DNA of 43,740 nucleotides from a virus (Duplodnaviria; Caudoviricetes), in the IMG/VR virus record IMGVR_UViG_3300020045_005328, positions 1 through 43,740 of that record; one strand, given 5' to 3'. The translations under genes and the position numbers were made by a program. The notes under the pieces are model-generated. The model ran no database searches and was not told the DNA's origin. It saw nothing but the letters and a program-made list of their open reading frames with translations. Shown here piece by piece: positions 106 through 43,740 of this stretch. Each line of letters starts with the position of its first letter. Within the stretch, counting starts at the first letter, position 1.

Positions 106-279
106 TGGCGGCGGCTAGAAGAACTGGCCGCCGCCACTGCTTCAAACTACTCAGGAAAACCAAGCTGGCGGCGGATGGTGCTACGCATCGCTCGCGGAGA
201 AATAACCGTTCGAGAAACCAAGCGCGTCGCCCGGCGCTCGAACAAATGTATGGGCGTGACAATCTATCAAAAGTTGTAA
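70..279 (+). CDS. Small ribbon-helix-helix-like DNA-binding protein; second gene of the solo cassette. The last 11 codons come from the interrupted target gene.
   Basis: GTG start overlaps the TGA of the upstream 92-aa ORF (GTGA). RRESLKL-(ESDWRRLEELA)-(SWRRMVLRIARG) fits a strand-helix-helix pattern. Crossover AAC at 241..243 is in frame. Confidence 0.55.
   Translation: MRRESLKLQESDWRRLEELAAATASNYSGKPSWRRMVLRIARGEITVRETKRVARRSNKCMGVTIYQKL
235..243 (-). other. Right junction (R box) of the solo gene cassette
   Basis: CGCTCGAAC is the exact reverse complement of GTTCGAGCG at 40644..40652, the far arm of the attC at 40557..40650. Confidence 0.75.
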
Positions 280-343
280 GGTTTCGAGGGTGGGGAAAAA
301 AGTTGTTGAGGTAAGACAGTCCATGTCCTACCTGTTGGCGTAG

Positions 344-2215
344 GTGAAGGAACTATTTGAGTCCGCACACAGCATTTTGACGGGCCGCAGTGTTTGGGAG
401 AACAAGCAACGCCTGTTCTACCAGATGCGGCATGATGGTATCCGGCGTTCCAAGAAACCTTTCCCGACAGCTTCCGACGGTCATTACCCACAGATTGATA
501 TGGCGATCCGAAAGGCGAAACCTTTCTGGATGGGGCAGGTGACGAGCGGGGACAAGTTGGCGGTGTTCACCAGTCTCAAGCCGAACGACATGGCGGCTTT
601 TTCGGATTCAGCAGCGGATTACTTCGATTTCATTCTCACCCAAAAGACGCAGTTCCTTCGCAAGCTGCGCGTGGCCGTGGATGAAATGCTATTGCGCGGG
701 CGCGGCATCATCAAAGTGACGGTCAATCCGTTGGATGACTATTCCGTCCAGGTCGAGGCGATCAACCCCCTCTTCCTTATCATGCCGCAGATGGCCGATG
801 ATTTCGCGGATGCAGATGAGTGGGTGCATGTGAAGCACATGACGGTGGCGGCTTACAAGCGTCTGGATGCGCGTTACGATACCAAGCCGGAAACCGTCGC
901 GCGGATTCGGGGTAGTGAGAACTTTGAGAATTTCAGCACGATCACAGAGGACAAGCGCACGCGCGAAGGCATCACGCACACGTCCAACCCAGACAACATC
1001 ATCATTTGGGAGCATTGGCGGAAGTCGCAAGGCGGGCACACAATCCACACTTACAGCCCGCACGCGCCTGAGTTGCCATTGCGCAAACCTCACGGGAATC
1101 CTTTCAAGGTGGCTGGCAAATCGTCCTGCCCGTTCTTCTCGTTCCCGATGGAAGTTAAAGACGAAGGTTGGTATTCGCCGCGCGGATTGGGCGAACTGCT
1201 TGCGCCGGTGGAGCAATACCTGACGAAACTTTGGAACGAGAAAGCGGACGCGATGACGTTCGCCAACAGACCGCTTTACACGGGAGACAAGGAGATTCAG
1301 AACCCGGCAAACTATCGTTGGGCACCGGGCGAATACATTCCCGGCAACATCCGTGGTGTTCAACAAGGTGCGCCACCGTTCAACTTCGATCAGGAGATCA
1401 TGTTCGCGCGCGGCATCGGTGAGCTTCAAGCGCAGACACCGGACTTTGGCATCACGCAGGAGGGTCAAGGCGGCGGCGGCAAAGCGCGGACGGCAGCGGA
1501 GAACTATCGCATTGCAGCACTGACGCAAGCCGGCACGAACGACAACGCGACCATCTTCCGTGAAAAGCTGGCGGAAGTGTACCGGCATATCTGGGGCATG
1601 ATCCTGCAATTCAAGCCCAAGGATTTCACTTATTTCGCCGCGGGCGAAGTGGGTTCATTGCCGGAACAAGCGTTGCATGATGCCTACCTGATTGCGCCGG
1701 ACGGTTCGCCGGACGGATGGAACAGGCAACAGCGGTTTCAAAAGGCGGTTTCGCTAATTCAGATGTTCACCGGCAATCCGAACGTGAACATGGAGGTATT
1801 GACCCGGAACGCGCTGGCGGCGGAGGACGGACGGCTCGCGCAATCGGCGTTCATCCCGTCGAACCTCAAAGGGGCAATCGAGGCCGAGGACGAGGCGCAC
1901 GAGATTGCGATTCTCAAGGAAGGTTTCCCGGCAGTGGTGACCCCGGGCGAAGATCACGCGACCCGTATCAAGATGCTTTTGGGTTGGTTGCAGAAGCAGG
2001 CCATGACCGGTGCGCCGCTCGACCCCATCGCCAAGCAGCGGGTGCAGGAACACTTGGCAACCCACTACCAGTATTTGCAGCAGACACAGCCGCAGGCGGC
2101 GAAACAGCTGGCAATGGCGATCAACCAGCAGGAACAGCCGAGCAACGTGGCGCAGATGCCATCTGCTGGCGGACCGCCCGTGCAGGCGCAACCGGAACAA
2201 GTAGGAATGATATGA
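344..2215 (+). CDS. Portal protein (podovirus type)
   Basis: 623 aa; follows terL on the circular map and precedes scaffold and capsid genes; motifs YSPRGLGELLAPVEQYL and RTAAE; Q/P-rich C-terminus typical of P22/T7-like portals. Confidence 0.8.
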   Translation: MKELFESAHSILTGRSVWENKQRLFYQMRHDGIRRSKKPFPTASDGHYPQIDMAIRKAKPFWMGQVTSGDKLAVFTSLKPNDMAAFSDSAADYFDFILTQKTQFLRKLRVAVDEMLLRGRGIIKVTVNPLDDYSVQVEAINPLFLIMPQMADDFADADEWVHVKHMTVAAYKRLDARYDTKPETVARIRGSENFENFSTITEDKRTREGITHTSNPDNIIIWEHWRKSQGGHTIHTYSPHAPELPLRKPHGNPFKVAGKSSCPFFSFPMEVKDEGWYSPRGLGELLAPVEQYLTKLWNEKADAMTFANRPLYTGDKEIQNPANYRWAPGEYIPGNIRGVQQGAPPFNFDQEIMFARGIGELQAQTPDFGITQEGQGGGGKARTAAENYRIAALTQAGTNDNATIFREKLAEVYRHIWGMILQFKPKDFTYFAAGEVGSLPEQALHDAYLIAPDGSPDGWNRQQRFQKAVSLIQMFTGNPNVNMEVLTRNALAAEDGRLAQSAFIPSNLKGAIEAEDEAHEIAILKEGFPAVVTPGEDHATRIKMLLGWLQKQAMTGAPLDPIAKQRVQEHLATHYQYLQQTQPQAAKQLAMAINQQEQPSNVAQMPSAGGPPVQAQPEQVGMI

Positions 2216-2547
2216 GCAAATTCGTGACGACATTGAACGTGAACATTGACGCGCTGCTAAAGAACGCGCCTCGTGGAACATTCATCCACAGCGCGACCCT
2301 TAGCGCAGACCGCAAGACTGTTACTGTTGTGTGGGACAATCCTCTCTTTGTGAGTCACGGCAGTGAAGGAATGGAGTTTTCAGTTGAGCAGCTTAAAGCC
2401 GGTGAGTTGCCGCCTTTGGTGACGTTAGCGGATTGGGCCAAGAAACCTCAGACCGTAAAGGTCGAGACAGCGACTGAGCCACAGGCAGAAGTTGTTGGGG
2501 TGGGGAACAAAGAAGTTGAGAGAGCGCCGGTTAAGCGTAAAAAGTGA
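2212..2547 (+). CDS. Hypothetical protein
   Basis: ATG at 2212 overlaps the portal stop (ATGA); lies within the 1717..2547 ORF. Confidence 0.6.
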   Translation: MSKFVTTLNVNIDALLKNAPRGTFIHSATLSADRKTVTVVWDNPLFVSHGSEGMEFSVEQLKAGELPPLVTLADWAKKPQTVKVETATEPQAEVVGVGNKEVERAPVKRKK

Positions 2548-2951
2548 TTTGCATGAGTGGTTTGGTGGTCAAGGTGAAACGGTGGCTGGTTCGCTTATTG
2601 ATGGGCGAGCCAGCCAAACCGTTGCCCGCGTTGCCGCTTCTCGTGGCGCGCGGATGGACGCCAGCCGACAAGGATATTCTCATCAACTTCATGGCATCGC
2701 CTACCGGCATTTGTCTGATGCAACGTATGCGGTGCGTGGCGGGGGAGATGGCGCGGCAAGGTGCTGGCGATGTGATGCACACGGCACACAGCGCGGGGAG
2801 AACGTCAGGATTTTACGATGCAATGGGCTGGCTTGAGAGTCAGTCCCGCATCGAGTTTGAAACGATTTCGGAAGCGGATGCCGATTCATCCGCAATATCC
2901 GCGCAGGAGCAAAAGGGCGATGCTTTGCTGCGCGAGCTTTATTCGCCCTAA
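2544..2951 (+). CDS. Hypothetical head-module protein
   Basis: Coupled ORF between portal and scaffold; start could be 2553. Confidence 0.6.
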   Translation: MICMSGLVVKVKRWLVRLLMGEPAKPLPALPLLVARGWTPADKDILINFMASPTGICLMQRMRCVAGEMARQGAGDVMHTAHSAGRTSGFYDAMGWLESQSRIEFETISEADADSSAISAQEQKGDALLRELYSP

Positions 2952-2966
2952 GAGAGAGACAATAGC

Positions 2967-3998
2967 ATGACTGAAATATCTGGATTAACGGGAGTCGAGG
3001 ACGCCATGACCGCATTGACCGCTTTGGAGACAGAGCGAGCGGCGACGGAAACGACCCCTGCCAGCGCGAACACAGATCAACGCGCGGATCAACCGGAGGG
3101 ATTAAGTGATGCTGAGGCTCAACTGAATCAATTAACCGACACACCAGCCACGGCAGAACCATCGGCAACCGATGTTCAAGCGGTGGCAAAGACAGATGCG
3201 ACGGTAGAAACTCAACAGAAGCCAGAGCCAGAAGCCAAGGGCGGCAAGTTCGCCAAGGATCAACAGCGCCGGGATACGACGTGGAAAGCGTTGAACGCTG
3301 AAAAGGAATCCTTCACCAAAGAGCGTCAGTCATTTGAAGCGGAGCGCAACGCATGGAAAGCGGAGCGTGAAGCGGCAGAGGCGGAGACTGCGGTGACCCC
3401 TGAGAAGTATGAAGGTTACGCGGTGCAGATGCGTGCGCGTGCGGATCATCTCAAGGCCGAGGCGGACAGGCTGGAACAGGCCGGGAAGTTCGACGAAGCG
3501 GAAGCCAAGCGCGAGGACGCAAGGGACGCAGAGGCGGACATCCGGCGGGCGAGCAAGGCAGCGGAAGAACTGCGGAAGAATCCACCGGCAAACGTCGTTC
3601 AACGGAACGAGCGGATGCAGGCGGAGAAAAAGGAATGGACGCTGAAAGCGGCGCAAGACTTCCCGGAACTGGCAAAGGACGGCAGTGAGTTTCAGAAGGC
3701 GGTGGCGACGAACCTGAGCGAGATACAAGCGTATGCGCCCGGGATTCTGCGCGACCCGAAAAGCATCTACTTGGTGACACGCATGACCGCAATGGAGACT
3801 GCGGCGGCTGGTGTGCCGGAACTAAAGACGAAGTTGAGCCAGACAGAGGCAAGGGTTAAGGAGTTGGAAGCCTTGGTATCGCCTGGCGCACCGAGTCAAC
3901 ACACACAGTTGGCCGGTGAAATCCCGTTCGAGCAACGTTCCCGTGAGGAACAGTTGAACGAATTGGAACGTCTGGCTACCGGGATGCCGCTCCGGTAA
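2967..3998 (+). CDS. Capsid scaffolding protein (putative)
   Basis: 343 aa, acidic and Ala/Glu-rich with predicted coiled coil; directly upstream of the capsid gene. Confidence 0.7.
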   Translation: MTEISGLTGVEDAMTALTALETERAATETTPASANTDQRADQPEGLSDAEAQLNQLTDTPATAEPSATDVQAVAKTDATVETQQKPEPEAKGGKFAKDQQRRDTTWKALNAEKESFTKERQSFEAERNAWKAEREAAEAETAVTPEKYEGYAVQMRARADHLKAEADRLEQAGKFDEAEAKREDARDAEADIRRASKAAEELRKNPPANVVQRNERMQAEKKEWTLKAAQDFPELAKDGSEFQKAVATNLSEIQAYAPGILRDPKSIYLVTRMTAMETAAAGVPELKTKLSQTEARVKELEALVSPGAPSQHTQLAGEIPFEQRSREEQLNELERLATGMPLR

Positions 3999-4019
3999 CG
4001 CCCTTGCCATGTAAAGATC

Positions 4020-5165
4020 ATGGCAAATACAATCGCAATCTTCAATCAAGGCGGCACACCCGCCCCGGCGGACTTCGCAAATCGTCTGCAAACCTTCTTC
4101 AACAAAGACTTGTTGGAGGCGTTGCAGTTTCAACTTGTTCTTGCCACCTACGGCATGAAAGCCAGTTACCCGATCCACGGGGACACTGTGCGTTTCTTCC
4201 GTGCGCGCAAGGCCAACACTGACGGCTTGCTTGGCTTGACTGCCGGTGAGTCTGCCGGGCCGGGCCGGGCTGGAACAGCCACGACCCTGACGGAAGGCAC
4301 GACCCCGACCCGCATGACGGATGTGGGCGTTGGGTATGTGGACATCCAACTCAAGCAACGCGGCCAGATCAGCAGCATGTCAGACATCGCACAGGCGATT
4401 GACTTGCTGAACATGGTTAAACTGCACAGCAAGACGCTCGGTGAAGATGCCGCGTTAGGCTTGGACGGCATTGTCCGCCAGGCGTTGATGCTTGGCTTGA
4501 CCGACACAAACGCGACATACGGGGCGGCGCATCCGTTTGAGCGGTTTTCCGGTCTGGCAACACCGACGGACGACAGCTCGACCGACTTTGACACATACAA
4601 AGACGGTGCCACGGTCAGTAACAGCGCTGGCAAGATCACTCGCGCGGTGCATTTGGGTTGCGTCACGCAGTTGCGCGCGGCGAATGTGCCGACCATCGGC
4701 GGCAATTACGTTGCCATTACCCCAACTCAGGTCATGCACGACATGCGACAGGACACCACTTGGGTATCTGCGGCGACGCAGGTTGACACCAAAGACCTGT
4801 ACAAGCGCGGCACGATCAAGCTGGACGGTGCGGTGTTTGTCGAGGCCGACAACGCCAGCATCGAGGGTAACACCTATCAGACACAGCGCGGCACGACTGC
4901 GTTGACAGGCACCAACACCAACACCTATTCAACGTGGTATCTCGGACGTGATGCGTTCGGCTGCGTTGAGTTGAACGACAAACGCGCTGGCAGTTCGATG
5001 ATGGGCCCGAAACTCATCGTGAACGCCACGCCTGACAAGGCTGATCCGCTCAACCTCAAGACGGTGTTGGGCTGGAAAGCGTTCTTTGGATGCAAAGCGT
5101 TGCACACGTCGGAAACGTCCGATGTGCCGCACTACGTTCAGTTGCGCTCCAAGTCCACGTTCTGA
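4020..5165 (+). CDS. Major capsid protein (N4-gp56-like)
   Basis: 381 aa; LTEGTTP, LKQRG, GRDAFG and DKADPLNLKTVLGWKAFFG motifs resemble N4-gp56-family capsids; position after scaffold. Confidence 0.85.
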   Translation: MANTIAIFNQGGTPAPADFANRLQTFFNKDLLEALQFQLVLATYGMKASYPIHGDTVRFFRARKANTDGLLGLTAGESAGPGRAGTATTLTEGTTPTRMTDVGVGYVDIQLKQRGQISSMSDIAQAIDLLNMVKLHSKTLGEDAALGLDGIVRQALMLGLTDTNATYGAAHPFERFSGLATPTDDSSTDFDTYKDGATVSNSAGKITRAVHLGCVTQLRAANVPTIGGNYVAITPTQVMHDMRQDTTWVSAATQVDTKDLYKRGTIKLDGAVFVEADNASIEGNTYQTQRGTTALTGTNTNTYSTWYLGRDAFGCVELNDKRAGSSMMGPKLIVNATPDKADPLNLKTVLGWKAFFGCKALHTSETSDVPHYVQLRSKSTF

Positions 5166-5914: not shown

Positions 5915-7900
5915 ATGAAACTTTATCCTTACAAGCGGTGGGTGTGGGTGGCATTGCTGTGGGTGGCTTTGCCTGTTCACGCGGCGATCACAGTGACACC
6001 GGGGGGCGGCGGGGCTGGCGACGTGACGGCGGCGGGGCTGGCGGCGGGGGACTTCATTGCGAGCGAAATCTACAACACCAACACACCCACACGCGGACTC
6101 AATGATGCAGCCGCTATGACTCCCGATCTCACGATCAATTGGTTTTATGTCTGGTCTGGGGCACTTCCCCCGCCAGACAACGGCATCAGCTACTACACGA
6201 ATCTCACCTACTACTCGTCGAATATGTTCCGGGAGTTCAGGACGAACGGCTATTACGCCGCAGGTTGGAACACGATTGATTTGGACGGCGGCTGGGCACA
6301 GACGACACGGACAGGCGGAGGCGATTTGACATGGAGCACAGCTTACTTTGAGAACGGGCAGTTGCCCATGTCGTTGCCGGATTACATCACTTTCGCGCAC
6401 TCAAATGGTTGGAAGGTCATGCTCTACTCATCATTGTCTGACACTCCCTGTAATCCGCCCTCGTCTCCGATCACCTACGCCTACCGTGATATTCAGAAGA
6501 TGATGTCTTGGGGCGCAGATGGTGTGAAGCTGGATAACTGCGTCATCGGCAGCACAGGGGAAACGAACACGTATTACTCGGCTTATTACCGGACGGTGAA
6601 TCAGGCGATCAATGATTACTACGCCGCAACACAGGCAACAAACGGCGAGTGTCGCCCGTTCAAGATTCTCGCGACGGGTAGCACGGCGGAAGGGTGGCCT
6701 AATTCGATCACCACGGACACGCTGTTCGGCGTCAATCAGATTTCATTCCAACCGACCATCATCGCGTTGGACATTTCGGACACTGCTCCGTGGAATCACC
6801 CCGGACTGACTAATCACACCTCGATGATACGGGAGGTCGTCAAGTTCAAGCCGTTCTTCCGTCCGGGCAGTGTTGTTTATACCGGCATTGGCGTCTATGG
6901 GAACAATCCTGGTTCGTGGACAAACATGATCGGCATGGCGGTGTTGGGCTGTCAGCCGATTGAAGCCGGGCTGGGTTCGGTGTTGGGCATGTTCAATTCA
7001 GGGCTGCCACCAACGGGCGATCAATGGGCTGATACGTTTTATCCCAGCTTCTCGCAATACCTGACCAACTCGGAAGTGTTCGCAATGTTGCGGGACAACC
7101 TCGTCATCCCGGCCACCATCACGTCGTCGAACATCTTCCTTGAGACGTGGAATCGTCCGTTGGAGAACGGGGACACCTGTTTGGGTATCTCGAACTTCGG
7201 CCCGACGAATCGAGTTGTCACACTGAACTATTACGACCTCGGCATCAGTCCCGGTGTTGGCTACGCCGTGCGAAATGTCTGGAATAAGACGAACCTGCTC
7301 TCATTCACGAACACGCTGAGTTGGACTCAGGAAAAGGAAAGCGTGTCGTTGTTGCGACTCATTCCCAAACGGACGATCAATGCGAACACCATCTCGGCTG
7401 ACTCTTTGACAGTGGGCGGTGCGTCGGTTGGAGGGCGATTCACGGAGACGACTTATCCGATGAAAAGCCTGACTATCTTCGGCACAGGATTGTCAGCTAC
7501 TTCAGTCGGCTCTCAGGGTGCTTTTAATAACAATGAGGGGTTGGTTCAAACCGCTGCGAATCAAGCGGGCGGCTTCAATATTCCAGTGCCGGATTGGGCT
7601 TCGACAGTCAGTATTGTTGGGCGGTATTATTCTGCTTTTGCAGGAACAGTGGCTTGGACGAACGCGCCTTTCATCAGTTATTACCATCCTGGAGGGCGTG
7701 TTCAAAAGACTGAGAACGATGATCCTGTGAACATACCAAACATTGCTGTTATTTGTCCGTCCGGGAATTATGTCACCGTCACGAACACAATCGTTTTCGC
7801 CAGCACGAACGCGCCGAAGGAAATCTATTTGCAGATGAACGCCTCATCGAACGCATCGGCCCGTCACGTCATCGGGCCTTTGAGCATCAAATATCAATGA
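5915..7900 (+). CDS. GH27 (alpha-galactosidase/melibiase-like) glycoside hydrolase with N-terminal signal peptide
   Basis: IDLDGGW, LPDYITFAHSNGWKVMLY and WGADGVKLDNC match GH27 barrel motifs, including the K-x-D nucleophile. WNRPLENGD...VRNVWNK resembles the melibiase C-terminal domain. MKLYPYKRWVWVALLWVALPVHA is signal-like. Confidence 0.75.
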   Translation: MKLYPYKRWVWVALLWVALPVHAAITVTPGGGGAGDVTAAGLAAGDFIASEIYNTNTPTRGLNDAAAMTPDLTINWFYVWSGALPPPDNGISYYTNLTYYSSNMFREFRTNGYYAAGWNTIDLDGGWAQTTRTGGGDLTWSTAYFENGQLPMSLPDYITFAHSNGWKVMLYSSLSDTPCNPPSSPITYAYRDIQKMMSWGADGVKLDNCVIGSTGETNTYYSAYYRTVNQAINDYYAATQATNGECRPFKILATGSTAEGWPNSITTDTLFGVNQISFQPTIIALDISDTAPWNHPGLTNHTSMIREVVKFKPFFRPGSVVYTGIGVYGNNPGSWTNMIGMAVLGCQPIEAGLGSVLGMFNSGLPPTGDQWADTFYPSFSQYLTNSEVFAMLRDNLVIPATITSSNIFLETWNRPLENGDTCLGISNFGPTNRVVTLNYYDLGISPGVGYAVRNVWNKTNLLSFTNTLSWTQEKESVSLLRLIPKRTINANTISADSLTVGGASVGGRFTETTYPMKSLTIFGTGLSATSVGSQGAFNNNEGLVQTAANQAGGFNIPVPDWASTVSIVGRYYSAFAGTVAWTNAPFISYYHPGGRVQKTENDDPVNIPNIAVICPSGNYVTVTNTIVFASTNAPKEIYLQMNASSNASARHVIGPLSIKYQ

Positions 7901-8084: not shown

Positions 8085-8088
<4 letters not shown>
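7897..8088 (+). CDS. Small basic Cys-containing protein
   Basis: ATGA overlaps at both ends (7897 and 8085). Confidence 0.5.
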
Positions 8089-8681
<593 letters not shown>

Positions 8682-9645: not shown

Positions 9646-10896
9646 ATGAGCAAACTACACGAAATCCTGCGGACGGGCGTTGCGCCCGGCATGAACCTGA
9701 AAAGCGGCGACCCGACCTTGCCCGAAAAGGCAGTGCCCAAGGCGTTCCGCGACCTGGAACAGAAGCATGGCGCGTCACGCATCGCGCGCGAAGCCGGGTT
9801 CAGCGTCAAACAGATCAAGCGCATCTGGAACATGCTGACGTTGCTGACAGGATTGCTGGCGGTCACAGCAACCGCTGGCGATTTGACGCGCAGCATCACC
9901 TTCAGCGACGGGCAACGCATCACGGCGGCGCAACTGCATACGCTTGTTGATGGTGCGAGTGTCAACGCCACGTTCCTGACGGGCAAGAATCTCAACAGCA
10001 CGGTGGATACGGCGGATTACGTCACGGTCTATGACACCAGCGCGGGCACATTCACCAGGATGACGTTGTCAACGCTACTGATGAACAACACCGGACTGAT
10101 CACAACGCAGACTGATGAGGTCAATCCTGCATACAATGACTATGTGCTGACGTATGACGCGAGCAGCGCGAGTTTCGCCAAGGTGAGCATTACAAACCTG
10201 CTTTGGAACACCAATATGATCGGTGTGTTGCCAAGCATCGTGACACCGGGCGCGGATTCGCGGCTCTGGTTGCGGGACAGCGGCACCAACGCGGCAATCC
10301 AATTGACGAACCTGTGGGCGGCGTTCCTGTACCGGGCGGGCATCACGAACCTGCCAACCCTGACCAGCCCGACAAACGAGGACCGGCTTTTGATGTGGGA
10401 CAGCGATGATCTGACCAACAAGACCACGACCCTGAGCGGGCTGTTCACGAACCTGACGACGACAACCACGAACCACAGCACAGATTCTTATCTGACAATC
10501 AGCAACGGCACGCTGAGGCTCATCACGTTCAACAACATCAGCAACCTGGTGATGCGGGGTTACAATGCGGGTTATGCAAGCGCGGAGACGGCCCTGAGTG
10601 CGGGCACAAAGATTCTGGACGAGGCACACAGCTTGCCAACAACGCCAACATGGGTGCGTGCGGTTTTGATATGCAAGACCGCCGATCTTAATTACGCGGT
10701 TAATGATGAGGTTCCTGCTGAAACGGTATCAAACTTCGACGGGCTTTGTGCCTTTGGAGCCGGAGCGAACACCACAAATGTATTTGTCACTTGTGAAAGC
10801 GGCGGCACTTATTTTTTAGCCAACAAAACAACTGGCGCGGGTGGTGTGGCTATCACTAATAGCCGATGGCGCGTCAAACTCTACGCAAAGCCATGA
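9646..10896 (+). CDS. Thr/Asn-rich virion or tail-fibre-like protein
   Basis: 416 aa with repeated D-x-(V/L)-x-x-D...K/R-x-T-L-x-x-L units; upstream of the tail genes. Confidence 0.55.
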   Translation: MSKLHEILRTGVAPGMNLKSGDPTLPEKAVPKAFRDLEQKHGASRIAREAGFSVKQIKRIWNMLTLLTGLLAVTATAGDLTRSITFSDGQRITAAQLHTLVDGASVNATFLTGKNLNSTVDTADYVTVYDTSAGTFTRMTLSTLLMNNTGLITTQTDEVNPAYNDYVLTYDASSASFAKVSITNLLWNTNMIGVLPSIVTPGADSRLWLRDSGTNAAIQLTNLWAAFLYRAGITNLPTLTSPTNEDRLLMWDSDDLTNKTTTLSGLFTNLTTTTTNHSTDSYLTISNGTLRLITFNNISNLVMRGYNAGYASAETALSAGTKILDEAHSLPTTPTWVRAVLICKTADLNYAVNDEVPAETVSNFDGLCAFGAGANTTNVFVTCESGGTYFLANKTTGAGGVAITNSRWRVKLYAKP

Positions 10897-29150: not shown

Positions 29151-29222
29151 TAAACACAGGGCAAACTAAGTCAATAAAATTACGAAATCTTTGTTGACGC
29201 AGGAAAAGCGACGTGTCATAGT
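29147..29222. promoter_or_regulatory. Divergent sigma70-like promoter pair
   Basis: Plus strand: TTGACG(29194)-N17-CATAGT(29217). Minus strand: TTGACT(29174)-N16-TATTGT. AT-rich gap where gene orientation switches. Confidence 0.6.
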
Positions 29223-29233
29223 CTTGGTGCAAC

Positions 29234-29431
29234 ATGAAACTGAGTGAACAAATCAAGAGACTCCCAGCCGGTAAAATCATCCAGGTCAAACCCTCTCAAA
29301 TGCGGACGGTCTATTATCACGCGCACAACTTCCGGGACATCACCAGCCGGGTCAACCTCAAGACCGGCGCGCGATATGTTTTGCTGGGGGAGTTTTTCCG
29401 GGCGACGGAGGCTGCCAGCAATGAACGATAA
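29234..29431 (+). CDS. Small basic protein, first gene of the rightward operon
   Basis: 65 aa; ATG 11 nt after the predicted -10. Confidence 0.55.
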   Translation: MKLSEQIKRLPAGKIIQVKPSQMRTVYYHAHNFRDITSRVNLKTGARYVLLGEFFRATEAASNER

Positions 29432-29454
29432 TCCTTGTTGTGCATACAAAATTA

Positions 29455-29657
29455 TGATGACCACACTGCAACTGACCCGACACGCGATGAACCAACCATC
29501 TTTCTACATCAACTACGCGGCCACTGCCAAAATCTGGCGGGAGACGGCGCAACGAGCGCATGAGGAAGGGGACTTTGAGGCCATGCGGATGTCGCATCTG
29601 CGCGCTTTGGAGAATGAGATATTGGCCCGGGCACAGGAGGCAAAATGCGCCGCCTGA
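29455..29657 (+). CDS. Hypothetical protein
   Basis: 3' part of the 29244..29657 ORF; start uncertain. Confidence 0.4.
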
Positions 29658-29756
29658 TCCGATCCTTGGTGCGCTGGGTTCACTGCGAGCCGCCTGCGGT
29701 GAATGTACGGCGGCACAGCCTGATCCGGTGGCTGGTGTTTCACGGTGGAATTGAGT

Positions 29757-29958
29757 GAGGAACGAAAAAGCTGAGACATGAGCGCCAACAGCACAAACTG
29801 CAACCAATGTGGAAAGTATCTCGAACACCCAATGACGTGCCCCGAATGTCATGCGCCAAGCGAATAGTCTCCAGCGCAACCTTGCGCGTCCAAATTTATG
29901 ATGACAATTGAAACTGCCCGGCGCTCGCCACGTCGCCTGCATCGAATGGTTAGGCCAC
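29757..29958 (-). other. Degenerate distal attC remnants
   Basis: AAC-N6-GCTGAGAC (29761..29777) pairs with GTCTCCAGC-N5-CTT (29867..29883), where GTT appears mutated. An orphan arm CCTGCATC-GAATG-GTTAGGCCAC ends at 29958. Confidence 0.45.
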
Positions 29959-30182
29959 GTCGGATCATCGTGACCTTCATTGACCCGTTCGATGACGAGC
30001 CTGTGGCGGAGAACAACTACCATTACGACGCCAGACTATCTGCCGATGTATTTTACTCGCGGCATGTCCGAAAAGTGCAACAAGCACTCAAAAAAATCCA
30101 AAGCCACATCCTGCAAGGCCGCACTCCGCGAATCGAAGTGTGCCTAGTGGCCTACGACCCAAGCTCAGCGACGGCGCGATGA
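29898..30182 (+). CDS. Cassette ORF, hypothetical
   Basis: Reads through GTTAGGCC (29949); its TGA overlaps the next ATG at 30179. Confidence 0.55.
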   Translation: MMTIETARRSPRRLHRMVRPRRIIVTFIDPFDDEPVAENNYHYDARLSADVFYSRHVRKVQQALKKIQSHILQGRTPRIEVCLVAYDPSSATAR

Positions 30183-30262
30183 ACCACAACGCTACAATTT
30201 TACGGCCAACGTCCGCGCTGCCCAGCGAACCGCGGGTTCGCAGCAGCGCGATGGTTAGATGC
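30147..30262 (-). other. attC6 (left arm ambiguous)
   Basis: Right arm GGGTTCGCAGCAGC-GCGATG-GTTAGATGC (R box 30254..30262). Left arm is either GGCCAAC at 30204 (57-bp hairpin) or the degenerate GTGGCCTAC...GCTCAGCGAC at 30147. Confidence 0.65.
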
Positions 30263-30406
30263 GACGGGTGGAGCGCAGAATTGGGGTGCGACAAAGAATG
30301 CGAGCCGCAAGAATGGGCAGGCCGATACGGAGGAAAGAACCTCTGCAAACAATGCGGGCAACGAAGCGATGATGATGCTCGTGCGTGGAGATGGCTCACA
30401 AGTTGA
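30179..30406 (+). CDS. Cassette ORF, small Cys-rich (zinc-binding) protein
   Basis: CDG...GC...LCKQCG; ATG at 30179 overlaps the upstream stop. Confidence 0.5.
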   Translation: MNHNATILRPTSALPSEPRVRSSAMVRCDGWSAELGCDKECEPQEWAGRYGGKNLCKQCGQRSDDDARAWRWLTS

Positions 30407-30412
30407 GAAAGC

Positions 30413-30534
30413 ATCTAACGACTGACTTGAGGCAAGACGCCGGAAACGAGCATGGAACGCAAAATGGATACTCAAATTGAAATCAACGATGGAGCGCAAA
30501 ACGGGGCGTCTTTGCCTCCAAGGAATGGTTCGGC
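30413..30534 (-). other. attC5 (122 bp)
   Basis: ATCTAAC-GACTGA-CTTGAGGCAAGACGCC ... GGCGTCtTTGCCTCcAAG-GAATG-GTTCGGC; two extra bases on the right arm. Confidence 0.85.
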
Positions 30535-31039
30535 TTTCCCGCCCGTCTTGGACGTGTGCTGCGGAAGTAGGATGTTCTGGTTCGACCGGAATAATCCCGC
30601 CGCGCTGTTCTGCGATAAGCGCGAAGAAAAGCACGTCCTCTGTGACGGCCGCGACTTGGAAATCTCGCCAGACGTGAAGTGCGACTTCACCGCCCTGCCG
30701 TTCCCTGACAACACATTCTTTCTGGTCGTGTTCGATCCTCCGCACATGAACTCGCTGGGCGCGAATAGCTGGCTCGCCAAGAAATACGGGCGACTACTTG
30801 GTGACTGGCACGACGAACTCGCGGAAGGCTTTCGGGAATGTCTGCGCGTCCTCAAACCAAACGGGACGCTCGTGTTCAAGTGGAACACAACGGATGTGCC
30901 GCTCGATGAAGTGCTGGCACTCGCTCCAATCCCGCCGCTCTTCGGTCATACGACCGGGAGGCAGGCGAAAACAGTGTGGGCGACATTCTTGAAGCCGAAC
31001 GGAGAGTTCAGGCGCACAGACCCGCCGTTGAAACCATGA
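30452..31039 (+). CDS. SAM-dependent (DNA) methyltransferase, cassette-borne
   Basis: VLDVCCGSRMFWFD (motif I), VVFDPPH (catalytic), ECLRVLKPNGTLVFKW; start at 30452 or 30464, inside the attC5 loop. Confidence 0.85.
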   Translation: MERKMDTQIEINDGAQNGASLPPRNGSAFPPVLDVCCGSRMFWFDRNNPAALFCDKREEKHVLCDGRDLEISPDVKCDFTALPFPDNTFFLVVFDPPHMNSLGANSWLAKKYGRLLGDWHDELAEGFRECLRVLKPNGTLVFKWNTTDVPLDEVLALAPIPPLFGHTTGRQAKTVWATFLKPNGEFRRTDPPLKP

Positions 31040-31128
31040 CGACACTCGAACAATCCAAGCCTGACGGCGAAGCCCGCGACTCCGTGCTGCGAATCGGGGC
31101 TGTGTCGTCCTGCAACGATTTGTTACCC
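30994..31128 (-). other. attC4 (135 bp)
   Basis: GCCGAAC-GGAGA-GTTCAGGCGCACAGACCCG ... CGGGGCTGTGtCGtCCTGcAAC-GATTT-GTTACCC; three extra bases on the right arm. Confidence 0.85.
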
Positions 31129-32076
31129 GGCCAATTCGTGAACATCATAAACGGAGACTGCCGAACCGTGCTGAAAGAACTCGCGCCCGAATCCATCCAG
31201 TGCGTCGTGACAAGCCCTCCGTATTGGGGGCTGCGGGACTACGGCCACGCGGACCAAATCGGGCAGGAAGAAACGCCTGACGCCTACGTGGAAACCATGC
31301 GTCAAGTGTTTGCGGAAATCTGGCGCGTGCTGAAAGATGACGGCACGGCATGGCTGAACCTCGGAGACTCCTACGCTCGAAACGGTGGAACGCCCGGTGG
31401 CGGAAACCGTGAACTCATGCACATGGAAGGAACTCAATCGCGCATGTGCAAAATCCCGGCCGGCGCCGGCCTGAAAGTAAAAGACCTTGTTGGTATTCCG
31501 TGGCTGGTCGCGCTCGCGCTGCGTGCCGATGGCTGGTATCTCCGCCAAGACATCATCTGGCACAAGCCGTCAACCATGCCGGAAAGCGTAACTGACCGAT
31601 GCACCAAGGCGCACGAATACATCTTCCTGCTAACCAAGTCTCAGAAATACTACTTCGACAACGAAGCCATCAAAGAGCCTTCGGACTATCCCGATGACGA
31701 CCGGAAAGGGCGCTCCTATGACCATCACAAATCCGCGCCGCCGGTAGAACGAAACGGCGTGAGGTCGGGCAACTATCTCGACTCTGGTCGAAGCTCCTAC
31801 GCGATGAGGAATAAGCGCAGCGTGTGGAGCGTGACAAACGCGGGATACTCAGAAGCGCACTTTGCGACGTTCCCGCCAGACCTGATAAAACCCTGCATCC
31901 TCGCCGGCACGAAGCCGGGCGACGTGGTGCTCGATCCTTTCGGTGGTAGCGGAACGACCGGCATGGTCGCTCTGGAACTCGGTCGCCGGGCTGTTCTCGT
32001 CGAACTGAATCCAGACTACGCGAAATTGTGCGATGAAAGATGCACGACAACCCGAGGGCTACCGCTGGCCGGGTAA
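31036..32076 (+). CDS. N4-cytosine/N6-adenine DNA methyltransferase (beta class), cassette-borne
   Basis: VTSPPYWGLRDY, WLNLGDSY, IIWHKP, HFATFPPDLIKPCI, VLDPFGGSGTT; ATG at 31036 overlaps the previous stop. Confidence 0.92.
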   Translation: MTTLEQSKPDGEARDSVLRIGAVSSCNDLLPGQFVNIINGDCRTVLKELAPESIQCVVTSPPYWGLRDYGHADQIGQEETPDAYVETMRQVFAEIWRVLKDDGTAWLNLGDSYARNGGTPGGGNRELMHMEGTQSRMCKIPAGAGLKVKDLVGIPWLVALALRADGWYLRQDIIWHKPSTMPESVTDRCTKAHEYIFLLTKSQKYYFDNEAIKEPSDYPDDDRKGRSYDHHKSAPPVERNGVRSGNYLDSGRSSYAMRNKRSVWSVTNAGYSEAHFATFPPDLIKPCILAGTKPGDVVLDPFGGSGTTGMVALELGRRAVLVELNPDYAKLCDERCTTTRGLPLAG

Positions 32077-32159
32077 CGATAAGTCCAGCCAAGCCGGAAC
32101 GGGACGCGCCGATTGAAACCGCGATGCAATCCGGCTTTGGCTGCGACGACGGGTTGGCA
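32071..32159 (-). other. attC3 (89 bp)
   Basis: GGGTAAC-GATAA-GTCCAGCCAAGCCGGA ... TCCGGCtTTGGCTGcGAC-GACGG-GTTGGCA. Confidence 0.88.
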
Positions 32160-32681
32160 GACGAAAAGAAAAATATGGACACAGAACACCAAAAGCTAAA
32201 TGCGTGGATCGCGCTGAATGTCACGAGGACGCTGCGCCGCATCTCTGATGCTGAATATGCCGTCGTGTGCGCCATCTGTGAGGAAGCGAACAAAGAACCG
32301 CACCCGAACCTGATGCTCACGCTGCCGTATCGCCACGAAGGACACTGCCCGAAATACACCACAGACTCCGTCGCCGCGATGGTGGTTCTGGAATACTGCA
32401 TGAAGAATCTCGACCGGCTGACTGGTCGCACTAACTTTCAAATCGTGGTGCTTTATGACGAAGGAAACAAAGCGCCATTCTGCGTGATGACTGACTCAAG
32501 AAATGCCGACGACGACAGCATACACGTCGAAAACTGTGCGTCGGCGGAAACGATGGAACTGGCAATCTGCCGCTTCTGTAAAAACCTGCATACCGGCAAG
32601 GGCGTGGCCGAGTCTGCCAACGCCGCGCTATGCGACGGCACGGTCGAACACCAACCAACTACCGAAGCTAAAAACCTATGA
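32124..32681 (+). CDS. Cassette ORF, phage ABA-sandwich-like protein
   Basis: LNAWIA...CPKYTTDSVAAMVVLE...AETMELAIC resembles the P-x-Y-S/T-T-D...A-x-T-x-x-LAIC pattern of that family; start 32124 (in attC loop) or 32175. Confidence 0.6.
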   Translation: MQSGFGCDDGLADEKKNMDTEHQKLNAWIALNVTRTLRRISDAEYAVVCAICEEANKEPHPNLMLTLPYRHEGHCPKYTTDSVAAMVVLEYCMKNLDRLTGRTNFQIVVLYDEGNKAPFCVMTDSRNADDDSIHVENCASAETMELAICRFCKNLHTGKGVAESANAALCDGTVEHQPTTEAKNL

Positions 32682-32817
32682 GACTACGAGGACATCAACT
32701 GGACGGATTCAACGCCTCATTAAAATCCGGCGACACAGCGAAAGCACATCAGGAACTCCAAACGGCGTGCGCCAGAGCCGAGGGCATAGTGCCGTTCGCA
32801 TCAGCAAGTGGTTCGGC
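32615..32817 (-). other. attC2 (203 bp, long coding loop)
   Basis: TGCCAAC-GCCGC-GCTATGCGACGGCAC ... GTGCCGtTCGCATcAGC-AAGTG-GTTCGGC. Confidence 0.85.
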
Positions 32818-33118
32818 CACGGCCATAGACCTGAATCGGTATGAGCAGGCCAGAGCAGAGCGCCAGCGGTGGACACTCGCCCAAAGCGTGGAAGCTCAGG
32901 AGGAACGAATCGCCGCGCACTACACAGCCTTCGCGCACCTCGCGATGCAACTGCGAGAACTGACAGAGGCGAGAAAGCACGGCTGCACAACCGACATAAA
33001 CGACACGATCCGCTTTCTGGCTGGCAAAATCCGCGAAGGCCATCTGATGGAGTTTGGCATCCAACTGGAGTGGCCGAACGTGGAGCTAAACGACCGGCGC
33101 AACCAACCTAAATCATGA
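32678..33118 (+). CDS. Cassette ORF, hypothetical helical protein
   Basis: 146 aa; ATGA overlaps at both ends; starts in the attC2 loop and ends in the attC1 loop. Confidence 0.7.
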   Translation: MRLRGHQLDGFNASLKSGDTAKAHQELQTACARAEGIVPFASASGSATAIDLNRYEQARAERQRWTLAQSVEAQEERIAAHYTAFAHLAMQLRELTEARKHGCTTDINDTIRFLAGKIREGHLMEFGIQLEWPNVELNDRRNQPKS

Positions 33119-33355
33119 GCGAAGCCAAACTCAAAGCCTGTCCGTGGTGCGGGTCTAAACCAAAAACCACAAGCCTGTCACGCGACTGCTGGCAAACATA
33201 CTGCGCGAATCTTGAATGCGAAGCCGAAATATCCGTGATGGGGATAACAAGCTACCAATCCCTGCGTATCTGGAACGAGAGGGCAGGCGACCGCGAACCA
33301 GAGGCCGTCCCAAACGCCGGGGCTATAGCCGGTTCGTTTCAGCGAATGGTTGGAC
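33073..33355 (-). other. attC1 (283 bp; loop encodes a whole zinc-ribbon domain)
   Basis: GCCGAAC-GTGGA-GCTAAACGACCGGC ... GCCGGtTCGTTTcAGC-GAATG-GTTGGAC. Confidence 0.82.
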
Positions 33356-33510
33356 AGAGCGACCCGGGGCGATGGATAAAGAGAGTCCATGGCAAATACT
33401 CACGCAATGGAGACCTGCTGACGATACGAACAGCCGAGGCTCTCATTGAAGAACTACAAGACACCATCGCCGCGCTGTCCAACAATTTTTCCACAACTCC
33501 TGTTCGCTGA
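33115..33510 (+). CDS. Cassette ORF with N-terminal Lar-like (restriction alleviation) zinc-ribbon domain
   Basis: MSEAKLKACPWCGS...YCANLEC...RIWNERA fits the Lar-family LKPCPFCG...C..C...WN-x-R pattern. Confidence 0.65.
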   Translation: MSEAKLKACPWCGSKPKTTSLSRDCWQTYCANLECEAEISVMGITSYQSLRIWNERAGDREPEAVPNAGAIAGSFQRMVGQSDPGRWIKRVHGKYSRNGDLLTIRTAEALIEELQDTIAALSNNFSTTPVR

Positions 33511-33512
33511 AT
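33475..33512 (-). other. attI-like site
   Basis: Minus strand reads GGAGTTGTGGAAAAATT-GTTGGACAG: an R box with A-rich spacer and no palindromic partner arm, abutting the intI start. CTGTCCAAC (33475..33483) complements GTTGGACAG (33349..33357). Confidence 0.7.
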
Positions 33513-36677: not shown

Positions 36678-36848
36678 ATGACAGCACACATATTGGCGGC
36701 GGAATTGGAATGCAAATGGACGGAACTGAGCCGCGAAAGCCCGGTCAACCGGATGCTCGCACTCGAAAGCCTGCTGCTCAATTTCCAGCATGAGATTGTG
36801 ACTCAGACGGGGGATTTTCTGCTGAACGGACCGGAGGTCGGGAATTGA
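36678..36848 (+). CDS. Hypothetical protein
   Basis: Own translation MTAHILAAELECKW...LLNGPEVGN, 56 aa. Confidence 0.45.
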   Translation: MTAHILAAELECKWTELSRESPVNRMLALESLLLNFQHEIVTQTGDFLLNGPEVGN

Positions 36849-37017
36849 AACGGCGGCAGATTACGGCTGGGGTGCGCCGGGAGAAGGCGCGCGGACCGAA
36901 CGGGGGCGGGCGTTCAATGAACTGGGAACTTCGTTGCGGAGAGAAGTCGTCGGTGGGATCGAGTCTGGACGAACTGGAACGGCGGCTGGCGGCATTGTCT
37001 CCAAAGGGAAAGACAAC

Positions 37018-37245
37018 ATGAACAGATCAGAACGGCGCAAACTCCTGGCGGAGTTGAGCGCAACCGAACCGGAACGGCTGGACGCCCAGGCGGACACATG
37101 GCTGGCTCAACATCAAAACGCCGAGCCCAAGGAACAGTTCCGGCTTGCGCTGCTGATCGCATCCGCACGGCTGGCGGCGAGCGATCTGCGGGCGATGCGT
37201 GCGGCGCGGCATCGGCTGGCTTATTCACAGGGTTATTCACAATGA
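37018..37245 (+). CDS. Hypothetical protein (homologue at 43153..43374)
   Basis: MNRSERRKLLAE...; frame is conserved in the diverged second copy. Confidence 0.6.
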   Translation: MNRSERRKLLAELSATEPERLDAQADTWLAQHQNAEPKEQFRLALLIASARLAASDLRAMRAARHRLAYSQGYSQ

Positions 37246-40386: not shown

Positions 40387-40617
40387 ATGAAAATAGAACT
40401 ATTGCAAATGGGATTTGATAAGGCATTTGAACGGATGAAAACAGACCCCGCTTTTCGTGAGAAATACAGATCAAAAACAGATACATGGTGGGCGTGGCAT
40501 CCGGTGCAGTGTGGGGCACTTGGAACAGGGTCGTGGGTTTGGCTGCGTCGAGTCTGGCGGAACTCAGAGGTCAGCGAGCCGGGCGGCCCTGCGCGTCCGA
40601 ACTCGCGGCAGACGTAG
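40387..40617 (+). CDS. Trp-rich small phage gene interrupted by cassette insertion at 40562/40563
   Basis: WWAWHPV...WVWLRRVWRN then continues into attC sequence; the apparent original 3' end (KCMGVTIYQKL*) is at 244..279. Confidence 0.65.
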   Translation: MKIELLQMGFDKAFERMKTDPAFREKYRSKTDTWWAWHPVQCGALGTGSWVWLRRVWRNSEVSEPGGPARPNSRQT

Positions 40618-40650
40618 CCCGCCCGGATTCGCTGCACCGATTTGTTCGAG
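40557..40650 (-). other. Solo attC site (94 bp), same polarity as the array sites
   Basis: GCGGAAC-TCAGA-GGTCAGCGAGCCGGGCGG ... CCGCCCGGAtTCGCTGcACC-GATTT-GTTCGAG; same extra T and C on the right arm. Confidence 0.82.
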
Positions 40651-40692: not shown

Positions 40693-40721
40693 TTGACAAG
40701 GTAGCTACCTTGTGCGAAACT
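40693..40721 (+). promoter_or_regulatory. Cassette-internal promoter with a perfect 18-bp palindromic operator
   Basis: TTGACA(40693)-N17-GAAACT; ACAAGGTAGCTACCTTGT (40696..40713) is its own reverse complement. Confidence 0.65.
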
Positions 40722-40770: not shown

Positions 40771-41049
40771 ATGAAAACGAAACTGACCATCAACCACAAC
40801 GGATTCCACGGCTACACATCCTGCTCGCTCGTCGTGGACGGAAACCCCGGAGACCGCGTGCAACTCTCGGAATCTCAAGTCAAAAAGCTCAAGCGCAAGG
40901 CTTGCGGATGCAGCGACTGCAAATGCGGGGAATCACTGCACGCGGCCTGCGAAATCCCCGAACCGTGGATCAACGACAGCCCGGTGTATCTGACCATCCC
41001 GGAAACCGGGACGGAAATCGAAGTGCGCGGGAACTATCCTCAGCGGTGA
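40771..41049 (+). CDS. Solo-cassette gene 1, small Cys-motif protein
   Basis: 92 aa; HNGFH and ACGCSDCKCG motifs; its stop overlaps the GTG of the RHH-like gene. Confidence 0.65.
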   Translation: MKTKLTINHNGFHGYTSCSLVVDGNPGDRVQLSESQVKKLKRKACGCSDCKCGESLHAACEIPEPWINDSPVYLTIPETGTEIEVRGNYPQR

Positions 41050-41135
41050 GACGCGAAAGCCTAAAACTTCAAGAAAGCGACAGGCGGCGGATGGTGCTAC
41101 GCATCGCTCGCGGAGAAGCGCAAACATTGGGGTAA
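41046..41135 (+). pseudogene. Deleted and truncated copy of the RHH-like gene 70..279
   Basis: Lacks 60 bp between the CTGGCGGCGG direct repeats (105..114 / 165..174); homology ends at 41117 (equivalent to 201). Confidence 0.7.
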
Positions 41136-42816: not shown

Positions 42817-43156
42817 TCAATCCCCCCAAACACCCAATGCATCACCCGACGTTGGAAGCGGCTCATGCCACGGCACTGAGGAAGCGCCGCGTCTTACCGT
42901 TTGCGCCGGGTGACGCAGTGGATTTTTGTTGATGTTATGTTGCATGATCTTCTGACGGGCTTCCGACCCGGCTCTTGCGAGCGGTTGAACTAAATCACTT
43001 TTTCTCCGGCGTGTCACCAAGAATCTTCTGACACAGATAAAAGCCCCATGCGATGATGATGGGACGCACCCACCAAGACGATGCCTTCGGCGCAGTCCAG
43101 ACACTCAGCCAGAAGATCAAAGCAACGGCAAAATATCTCATTTTGTGAATAGTCAG

Positions 43157-43564
43157 TAACCCTGTGAATAAGCCAACCGATGCCGCGCCGCGCGCATTGC
43201 CCGCAGATCGCTCGCCGCGAGCCGGGCGGCCGCGATCAACAGCGCCAGCCGGAACTGTTCCTTGGGCTTGGCACATGAGTGTTGGGACAGCCAGACATCC
43301 GCCTGGGCGTCCAGCCGTTCCGGTTCGGTCGCGCAGGACTCCGCCAGGAGTTTGCGCCGTTCTGATCTGTTCATGTTGTTTTGCCCTTTGGCGACAACGC
43401 CGCCAAGCGCCGTTCCAATTCGTCCAAGCTTGAGCCCACGGACGACTTTTCTCCGCAACGAAGTTCCCAGTTCATTGAACGCCCGCCCCCGTTCGGGACG
43501 CGCGCCTTCTCCCGGCGCACCCCAGCCGTAATCTGCCGCCGTTTCAATTCCCGACCTCCGGTCC
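43157..43564 (-). repeat. Diverged inverted copy of 36828..37235
   Basis: Collinear 408-bp match with scattered substitutions; includes a homologue (43153..43374) of ORF 37018..37245. Confidence 0.85.
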
Positions 43565-43738
43565 AAGCTGCGTCAAAAACGCTTCCATCTTCAATTCTGG
43601 TGAACCCACCGGACACCGCTCCGCCACGAATCTTGAAAATCGCACGAGCCAGCCGATATAACTCTGCTCCGTAGCGAGCGATAAATGCCTGAGCCGTATC
43701 GTGTCCCGCATCTTTTCAATGGCGATTTCCAGTTTCAT
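43544..43738 (-). pseudogene. intI: 5' fragment of a second, diverged intI
   Basis: First 58 codons match 33513..33686 (43683..43740 identical to 33511..33568, then diverged), fused in frame to GPEVGN* of the 36678..36848 homologue; no catalytic domain. Confidence 0.85.
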
Positions 43739-43740
43739 AT

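Follow-up and report, generated by a model that had tools for sequence, protein, structure and literature searches.

A complete integron in a phage genome

The window analysed here is the complete 43,740-nt record IMGVR_UViG_3300020045_005328, a single contig assigned to a tailed phage (Duplodnaviria; Caudoviricetes). It carries an integron, composed of a gene for an integron integrase (IntI), the adjoining attI site and an array of attC sites and cassette genes, whose features are collected in Table 1. The geometry of the sites is the usual one, and the cassette genes with database support are encoded on the bottom strand, each behind its hairpin.

Table 1. Features of the integron region, in window coordinates
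Feature	Position	Strand	Remarks
Candidate early promoter	29194..29222	+	TTGACG-N17-CATAGT, extended TG; 9/12 match; AT-rich divergent intergenic region, GC 40%
Small open reading frames (ORFs) ahead of array (e.g. 29234-29431, 29487-29657)	29234..29883	+	no attC boundaries recognised, no family matches
attC, decayed	29884..29955	+	loop and right arm kept, left arm lost; 84% over 73 nt to L031 site
ORF	29898..30182	+	start inside loop of decayed attC 29884-29955
ORF	30179..30406	+	passes through degenerate attC 30204-30260
attC, degenerate	30204..30260	.	extra-base pattern ambiguous; right box still complements next left box
attC, 122 nt	30413..30534	-	top strand minus, bottom strand plus; loop contains ATG of first methyltransferase
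DNA methyltransferase, cassette unit 30419-30999	30452..31039	+	phrog_954 E 6e-71; stop inside next hairpin
attC, 135 nt	30994..31128	-	leader-encoding; predicted stem probability 0.03
N6/N4 DNA methyltransferase, cassette unit 31000-32076	31036..32076	+	PF01555 E 4e-54, phrog_67; stop is TAA of next left box
attC, 89 nt	32071..32159	-	canonical hairpin fold; predicted stem probability 0.99
Likely phage ABA-sandwich-type protein, cassette unit 32077-32620	32124..32681	+	start 32124 (loop) or 32175; atlas feature score 0.93
attC, 203 nt	32615..32817	-	47-residue leader encoded in loop; leader seen on 7 other bodies
Protein of unnamed family, cassette unit 32621-33078	32678..33118	+	hairpin leader, conserved body, tail from next hairpin; 23 homologues
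attC, 283 nt	33073..33355	-	entire Lar-like domain within loop; predicted stem probability 0.02
Lar-like restriction-alleviation domain and short body, cassette unit 33079-33482	33115..33510	+	phrog_599 E 2e-9
attI	33477..33512	-	crossover box GTCCAAC; AA|C on plus at 33482/33483; second conserved box ahead of intI ATG
Integron integrase IntI, 318 aa	33513..34469	+	TIGR02249 249 bits; R138, K163, H266, R269, H292, Y301; IntI-specific insertion

IntI was matched by TIGR02249 in a single stretch over positions 2-312 of 315, narrowly missing the cut-off of 265 bits; this was a far better match than that of the Xer models, which cover the protein in two stretches. Its catalytic residues (Table 1) are kept in the alignment. 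The attI box at 33477-33483 has no hairpin, complements the last right box of the array and aligns with the attI region of relatives. With an IntI-type recombinase, an adjoining attI, and attC sites possessing R and L boxes, an unpaired spacer and extra bases on one arm, the components of a complete integron are all present. The locus is not a cluster of attC sites lacking an integrase (CALIN), since intI adjoins the array, nor an inverted-integrase integron, as intI lies on the plus strand and the top strand of the attC sites is the minus strand; nor are its genes placed as in a canonical integron, on the top strand and each followed by its attC.

In all five intact attC sites the extra bases, a C close to the L box followed by a T, are on the 3′ arm of the plus strand, equivalent to G and A on the 5′ arm of the minus strand, and a G follows AAC on the plus strand in the six left boxes of the window. 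The bottom strand is defined by extra bases on the arm opposite the cleaved AAC (PMC5027507), while G usually comes after AAC in a bottom-strand R′ box and C is tolerated as first extra base (PMC2727003). We concluded from these three markers that the plus strand is the bottom strand of the intact sites. The reverse complement of each right box is moreover identical to the left box that follows, at 6 of 6 junctions and ending at attI, and never to its own left box; four bases vary per junction, for a chance of about 1 in 256 each. A strict template scan recovered four of the five intact sites, with a single match in total over 8 shuffles of the 6.5-kb region, and a generic repeat search of the window did not show the attC sites. 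The degenerate site was given by the arm aligner a polarity opposite to that of the other window sites. When the right arms of the 283-nt site and the 203-nt site were used in exact searches, 2 and 3 matches were obtained, none within a recognisable attC.

An earlier reading of the window by a model, made from the letters and an ORF list (the sequence-only reading), had placed the extrahelical bases on the right arm of all intact sites, pointed the array away from intI as is normal, and put every cassette ORF on the plus strand, co-oriented with intI. The first two statements were borne out, by the extra bases (5/5 intact sites) and by the box chain, which ends at attI 5′ of intI. As to the third, PHROG families were matched by 3 of 9 plus-strand ORFs (the two DNA methyltransferases and the Lar-like protein), and two more plus ORFs are supported, one by an atlas look-alike and one by 23 homologues. 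Real minus-strand proteins, which that reading had named as refuting it, were looked for, and none of the 9 minus ORFs had a PHROG match. The minus ORF 29358-30023 was considered and rejected as a likely shadow frame, its Pfam match being below threshold (E 4e-4, 20.7 bits, cut-off 29.6). Among the ABA-sandwich look-alike clusters of ORF 32175-32678, PF18066 is found on 40% of cluster members, which provides a lead; an ESM Atlas search with the 32678 protein gave no score above 0.76. Going by family names, the methyltransferases and the Lar-like protein would have an anti-restriction role. The Lar-like cassette occupies the attI position, and its ORF reads across attI to end 2 nt ahead of intI.

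Polarity, coding strand and crossover side in phage relatives

The survey of ORF against attC polarity in homologous phage arrays that had been suggested with the sequence-only reading was run. IntI searches gave 15 and 26 viral loci, in overlapping sets. Re-fetches of the same contigs (L016-L021, L025, L032-L036, L038, L039), near-duplicates (L006, L023, L024, L027, L041), L037 (no upstream DNA) and L040 (26% identity) were left out, and no site was detected in L013 and L028. After removal of duplicates, the counted set consisted of 18 viral loci plus the window (19 loci), with 73 sites.

The plus strand is the bottom strand in 72 of the 73 sites, the exception being the degenerate site of the window. 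A G follows AAC on the plus strand in 69 sites and on the minus strand in none. Of 54 pairs of neighbouring sites, 42 have a right box complementary to the left box that follows it; complementarity between the right and left box of one site was seen in 3/73. In 16 of the 19 loci, a match to the last right box lies 34-58 nt ahead of the start of intI; the exceptions are two loci whose intI is truncated and L003, where one base varies. PHROG matches were obtained for 20 of 65 plus ORFs versus 0 of 59 minus ORFs, and the codon model scored plus above minus in 73/73 gene bodies, with a margin of at least 3 in 61 and near ties in 12.

Box complementarity by itself is blind to the crossover side, which, judging from its ends, a duplicate in the relative L012 fixes at the AAC side. 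Segments 7566-7819 and 9717-9970 of this locus are 99.6% identical, and the repeated unit starts with a left-box AAC, takes in the hairpin and the gene behind it, and is closed by the following AAC, which in one of the copies is that of attI. This is a single event in one relative. It matches the outcome of the copy-and-paste insertion known for IntI1 (PMC8024014), and thereby supports entry of new cassettes at attI. Chain complementarity and the duplicate would both fit movement of cassettes as units by IntI bottom-strand recombination. Two further proposals of the sequence-only reading thus gain support: that the recombinogenic bottom strand is the coding strand (polarity markers, box chain and duplicate), and that new cassettes land just upstream of intI (box chain into attI, duplicate at attI).

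The non-viral collections provided 38 bodies, of which 21 scored plus, several of these lying on phage-like contigs. In six loci labelled canonical, the score was clearly minus for 11 of 16 bodies and clearly plus for none, and the same scripts scored L088, L048 and L107 as minus-coded. L088 has a Pfam-supported hydrolase on the minus strand between two sites; Pfam run on 57 control cassette ORFs found no family, except on one plus-strand ORF of L057. From their sequences, the chromosomal relatives appear canonical. The single site detected in phage TJE1 is canonical as well. Our own detector, tuned to GC-rich sites with 5-nt spacers, found no confident site in P12002L and none in 10.6 kb of Rctr41k.

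None of the 9 IntI records of an annotated phage collection was close (all <60% identity, best 37%). On a quick, unrooted IntI tree, the window falls inside a 17-row group (SH-aLRT 99), 13 of which are inverted and 4 unscored. The inverted label would need three changes on this tree, with which a single origin and several are both compatible. The closest IntI relatives among 38 genome loci are in majority from Verrucomicrobiota, and the hosts are likely to belong to this phylum, as its genomes hold most of them. Related IntI are also found in Mu-like early regions (L009/L030-type loci, L057 and L109), with Gam, AAA, GemA and Pol beta-like genes in L057 and L109. Judged by these contexts, the system spans more than one phage type. 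A site of opposite polarity was seen at 6065-6158 of L004, downstream of intI amid minus-strand ORFs; it is possibly still bottom-strand coded.

Expression of the array

The sequence-only reading saw in the array and intI one early operon, transcribed from a sole clear promoter at the far end. The promoter pattern is present at 29194, and its sequence makes it the best candidate, but not the sole one; two divergent candidates stand beside it, facing leftward genes. Inside the array of the window no 9/12 plus-strand match was found, 8/12 plus matches being present. A search for a cassette promoter (Pc) in intI or attI facing the array gave no 9/12 match, and one 8/12 minus match at 33538. Scanning near intI for LexA boxes, with three motifs, revealed no perfect box, a CTGT-N8-ACAG with one mismatch at 33418, and a GAAC-N4-GTTC type with two mismatches at 33493.

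In chromosomal-type relatives, a TTGATT/TTAATA...TATATT match lies over attI, with TATATT after the second attI box and the ATG further downstream. This ancestral −10 hexamer has its position taken by the intI ATG in the window and in the phage relatives closest to it. A transcript from the old promoter would therefore miss the start codon, and intI likely depends on read-through across attI. In L088 (6936-7008) and L048 (7936-8008), attI seemingly has overlapping promoter matches in both directions, the minus-strand −10 ending 7 nt before AAC; this minus-strand match is a candidate for the Pc of this integron group.

At 7 of the 9 listed junctions of the window, including those from cassette to intI and from intI to the next gene, an ATGA overlap or a 2-nt gap is found; at the other two, 45 and 47 nt separate the genes. 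Among relatives, the array is embedded mid-operon in long runs of co-oriented genes. The array and intI are likely to form one operon, and this part of the claim is supported indirectly, by the junction overlaps and by the ATG placed on the old −10. Transcription would come from the far end; the single far-end promoter is particular to this genome and is no rule among relatives.

Alternatively, the inverted layout may be real and expression come from several internal plus-strand promoters, or depend on a phage-specific activator, instead of a single message from 29194. Three cassette-internal plus-strand candidates are present in L009, one of them matching 11/12, and a TTGACA box follows the isolated site at 40557; the 8/12 matches in the array and the mid-operon position in relatives would agree with this, and host promoter types may differ. 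However, the start-stop overlaps at most window junctions, the absence of a 9/12 plus match inside the array, and the short distance from the ancestral −10 to the ATG of intI, which leaves a transcript no space to start, argue against it. We consider this explanation unlikely.

Proposed mechanism and points against it

The best explanation, to which we assign a probability of about 0.8, is that of a complete phage-borne integron with normal attI/attC geometry, cassette genes on the bottom strand and the hairpin before the gene, likely co-transcribed with intI as an early operon from upstream. As with IntI1 and bottom strands, IntI would recombine the plus strand in its folded form, at AA|C, and new or copied cassettes would enter between the array and intI, farthest from the upstream promoter. 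Translational coupling would take ribosomes through the hairpins. Having lost its own promoter, intI would be made together with the early genes; array position would be no on/off switch, unlike in bacterial integrons, and the system would be a place where early accessory genes are exchanged, which in this phage are methyltransferases and a Lar-like protein.

Several points weigh against this explanation. The canonical control set was labelled as such after the codon score had been seen. When 19 viral loci were chosen by right-arm pattern (L192 and L194, from the same contig as L193, being left out), 14 scored plus, 2 minus and 3 tied, and by eye L193 is canonical and L180 mixed. The 29194 promoter is one of five 9/12 matches, compared to 2.6 +/− 1.8 in shuffles, which is near chance, and promoter matches in relatives are at chance (5 plus and 3 minus in 65 kb; 4.25 and 5.6 in shuffles). 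The 8/12 minus-strand match at 33538 spans the intI start, and L031 is inverted yet has an intact intI promoter match. Five of 6 closely related hairpin pairs are without any shared flank, for which bottom-strand crossover alone is insufficient. Finally, folding energies give no consistent preference for the plus strand, and the predicted stem probability on this strand is low in 3 of the 5 intact window sites (0.03, 0.21 and 0.02); according to this prediction, these three poorly folding sites may recombine rarely.

The mixed locus, L180 (IMGVR_UViG_3300032156_000999, 140-4944), is a 12-site viral array, seemingly with plus-coded phage cassettes and minus-coded host-type cassettes. Antisense frames of the latter are likewise open behind hairpin leaders, and one minus ORF has a full-length 77% homologue.

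The folding predictions raise the question of a frozen relic, an array formerly mobile and now fixed because its long coding loops block folding. Loops reach ~230 nt, versus a range of 56-141 bp for the sites of mobile integrons (PMC5371416), the distal sites have decayed, the low stem probabilities would agree, and intI is truncated in L014, L015 and the contig's own tail. Against this, the catalytic residues are intact, the box matches in the window are perfect (6/6), the median predicted stem probability reaches 0.95 over the 73 sites, and the duplicate in L012 is 99.6% identical, so that we hold a relic to be improbable. Long loops have been described to reduce recombination from double-stranded DNA, and a bottom strand on the lagging-strand template to raise it (PMC8946536, PMC5371416). 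That the polarity was misread, the IntI lineage recombining the other strand and the coding strand being the functional top strand with hairpins after genes as usual, is very improbable: the first extra base is C on plus in 64/73 sites, which is the familiar G on minus, and near-identical hairpins occur with unrelated downstream genes, but the L012 duplicate includes the upstream hairpin and ends at AAC, the hairpin-less box adjoins intI in 16/19 loci, G follows AAC exclusively on plus, and minus is the coding strand in non-viral relatives that have this site geometry, C being present in some of them as well.

Starts and stops supplied by the hairpins

The frame of AAC meets a stop inside the hairpin in 69 of 73 sites, compared to 45 and 42 for the other two frames, and in 51 of 62 cases it is also the longest frame upstream. 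In 48/73 sites the loop contains an in-frame ATG, with an exact ATGA overlap with the stop in 19. An upstream gene either ends with the TAA of the box or translates AAC to Asn and runs to a stop within the following hairpin, where it often overlaps the ATG that comes next. This means that cassette order can be changed without any gene losing its stop. In class 1 arrays, translation of the upstream cassette shapes downstream expression (PMC11511950); by analogy, coupling at cassette junctions is plausible as a selected trait. The supply of starts and stops by hairpins, and the reassortment of leaders and bodies described below, go beyond what the sequence-only reading stated.

The 135-nt hairpin was found in five other viral contigs, two of them near-identical, with homology extending from AAC to GTT and different flanking genes on both sides. 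The 32678 protein has 23 homologues: the body is common to 16 of them and the 47-residue leader alone to 7, while 3 are without box-like ends (protein sequences only). At least 4 other leaders precede the shared body in the 16, and in 13 of these proteins the tail diverges past the box Asn. Non-cassette homologues of the first methyltransferase align only with the body, from residue ~17-31 to 181-184.

Two related observations were made. The L161 copy of the 135-nt hairpin has a loop one base longer than that of the window, and its leader is moved into the frame of a different body. The Lar-like domain lies whole in the loop of two different hairpins (window 33073-33355; L012 7110-7406, 297 nt), which have a similar short end motif and are fused to different bodies.

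Hairpins shared between unrelated genes are typical of Vibrio arrays, and leader/body reassortment may be an ordinary, unexplained route of cassette creation. Top-strand recombination by IntI1 is 1,000- to 10,000-fold less frequent (PMC5027507); exchange at the opposite box is a candidate for one source of leader swapping. We tentatively propose, at clearly less than even odds, that attC hairpins are portable translation start-and-stop modules and that IntI would act at both boxes, moving leader and gene into attI at AA|C, and joining a leader to a new body in a rarer event at the opposite box. This proposal draws on the 47-residue leader recurring with 7 other bodies, a body preceded by at least 4 other leaders, junctions at box positions and the non-cassette gene forms. 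If it is true, the phage integron is a cassette factory and domain shuffler, making new cassettes and fusions from ordinary phage genes stripped of their ends, and the origin of cassettes becomes testable.

Surroundings of the array

Other phage genes in the window include a major head protein and tail-like genes. Positions 1-114 are repeated at 40977-41090, and from its sequence the window looks like a circular phage genome of ~41 kb followed by a chimeric tail. Within this tail, at 43149-43740 (minus), the first 175 nt of intI are copied inverted with 89% identity and fused directly to a copy of 36828-37243; the segment derives either from a sibling phage in which a deletion of 3.1 kb runs through intI, or from an assembly chimera. 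The tail also encodes a replication initiator and an HNH gene. An assembly artefact was considered for the array itself and rejected: the contig tail is chimeric, but the array is without internal repeat >50 nt and its box chain is unbroken.

An isolated attC, far from intI and with the polarity of the array, is found at 40557-40650, followed near 40693 by a TTGACA box and then, at 40771-41049, by a cysteine-rich ORF; it is possibly an off-target cassette with its own promoter. At 8086-8190, within a tail-like gene, a run of heptamer repeats is followed by its inverted copy; this structure is not an attC.

Comparison with known systems

Strand selectivity in integrons has been explained as placing promoterless genes under Pc (PMC2727003, PMC5027507). 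Here it would be kept with genes on the other strand, which uncouples the logic of recombination from that of expression. The phage lineage appears to swap methyltransferases and other early genes via its own integron while leaving a coupled operon intact. The first making of cassettes could be approached through hairpins carrying starts, leaders and whole domains, and reassorting with bodies. In practice, gene finders and integron tools expecting a gene then its attC would pair each hairpin with the wrong gene in inverted arrays. No array with systematic bottom-strand coding was found in a literature search, most subscription journals being outside its range.

Sedentary chromosomal and class 1 integrons (PMC8946536, PMC2727003) resemble the present one in the IntI family, attI 5′ of intI, attC sites with R and L boxes and two extra bases, box complementarity, the direction of the array away from intI, and copy-and-paste at attI (seen here in a relative). 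They differ in that here the genes are on the bottom strand and read toward intI, with the hairpin ahead of the gene and usually supplying its start, there is no clear Pc, and coding loops reach ~230 nt. The Verrucomicrobiota-associated integrons L046, L048 and L088, whose IntI are 50-55% identical, have a homologous attI, similar attC arms and the same polarity relative to intI, but their cassette ORFs score minus, and their intI promoter match over attI leaves room before the ATG.

The phage integrons and CALINs of Qi et al. 2023 (PMC9892861) are alike in phage-borne attC arrays and methyltransferase cargo. The complete ones, however, are carried by temperate phages and belong to the Vibrio, Shewanella or class 1 types; TJE1 is called typical, and the main text of that report describes no bottom-strand coding. 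Lastly, in the inverted-integrase (reverse) integrons of Treponema (PMC4889954, PMC13323075), intI and cassette genes are co-oriented as here; there it is intI that is flipped relative to the attC sites, whereas in the phage integron intI and attC are regular and the genes are flipped inside the cassettes.

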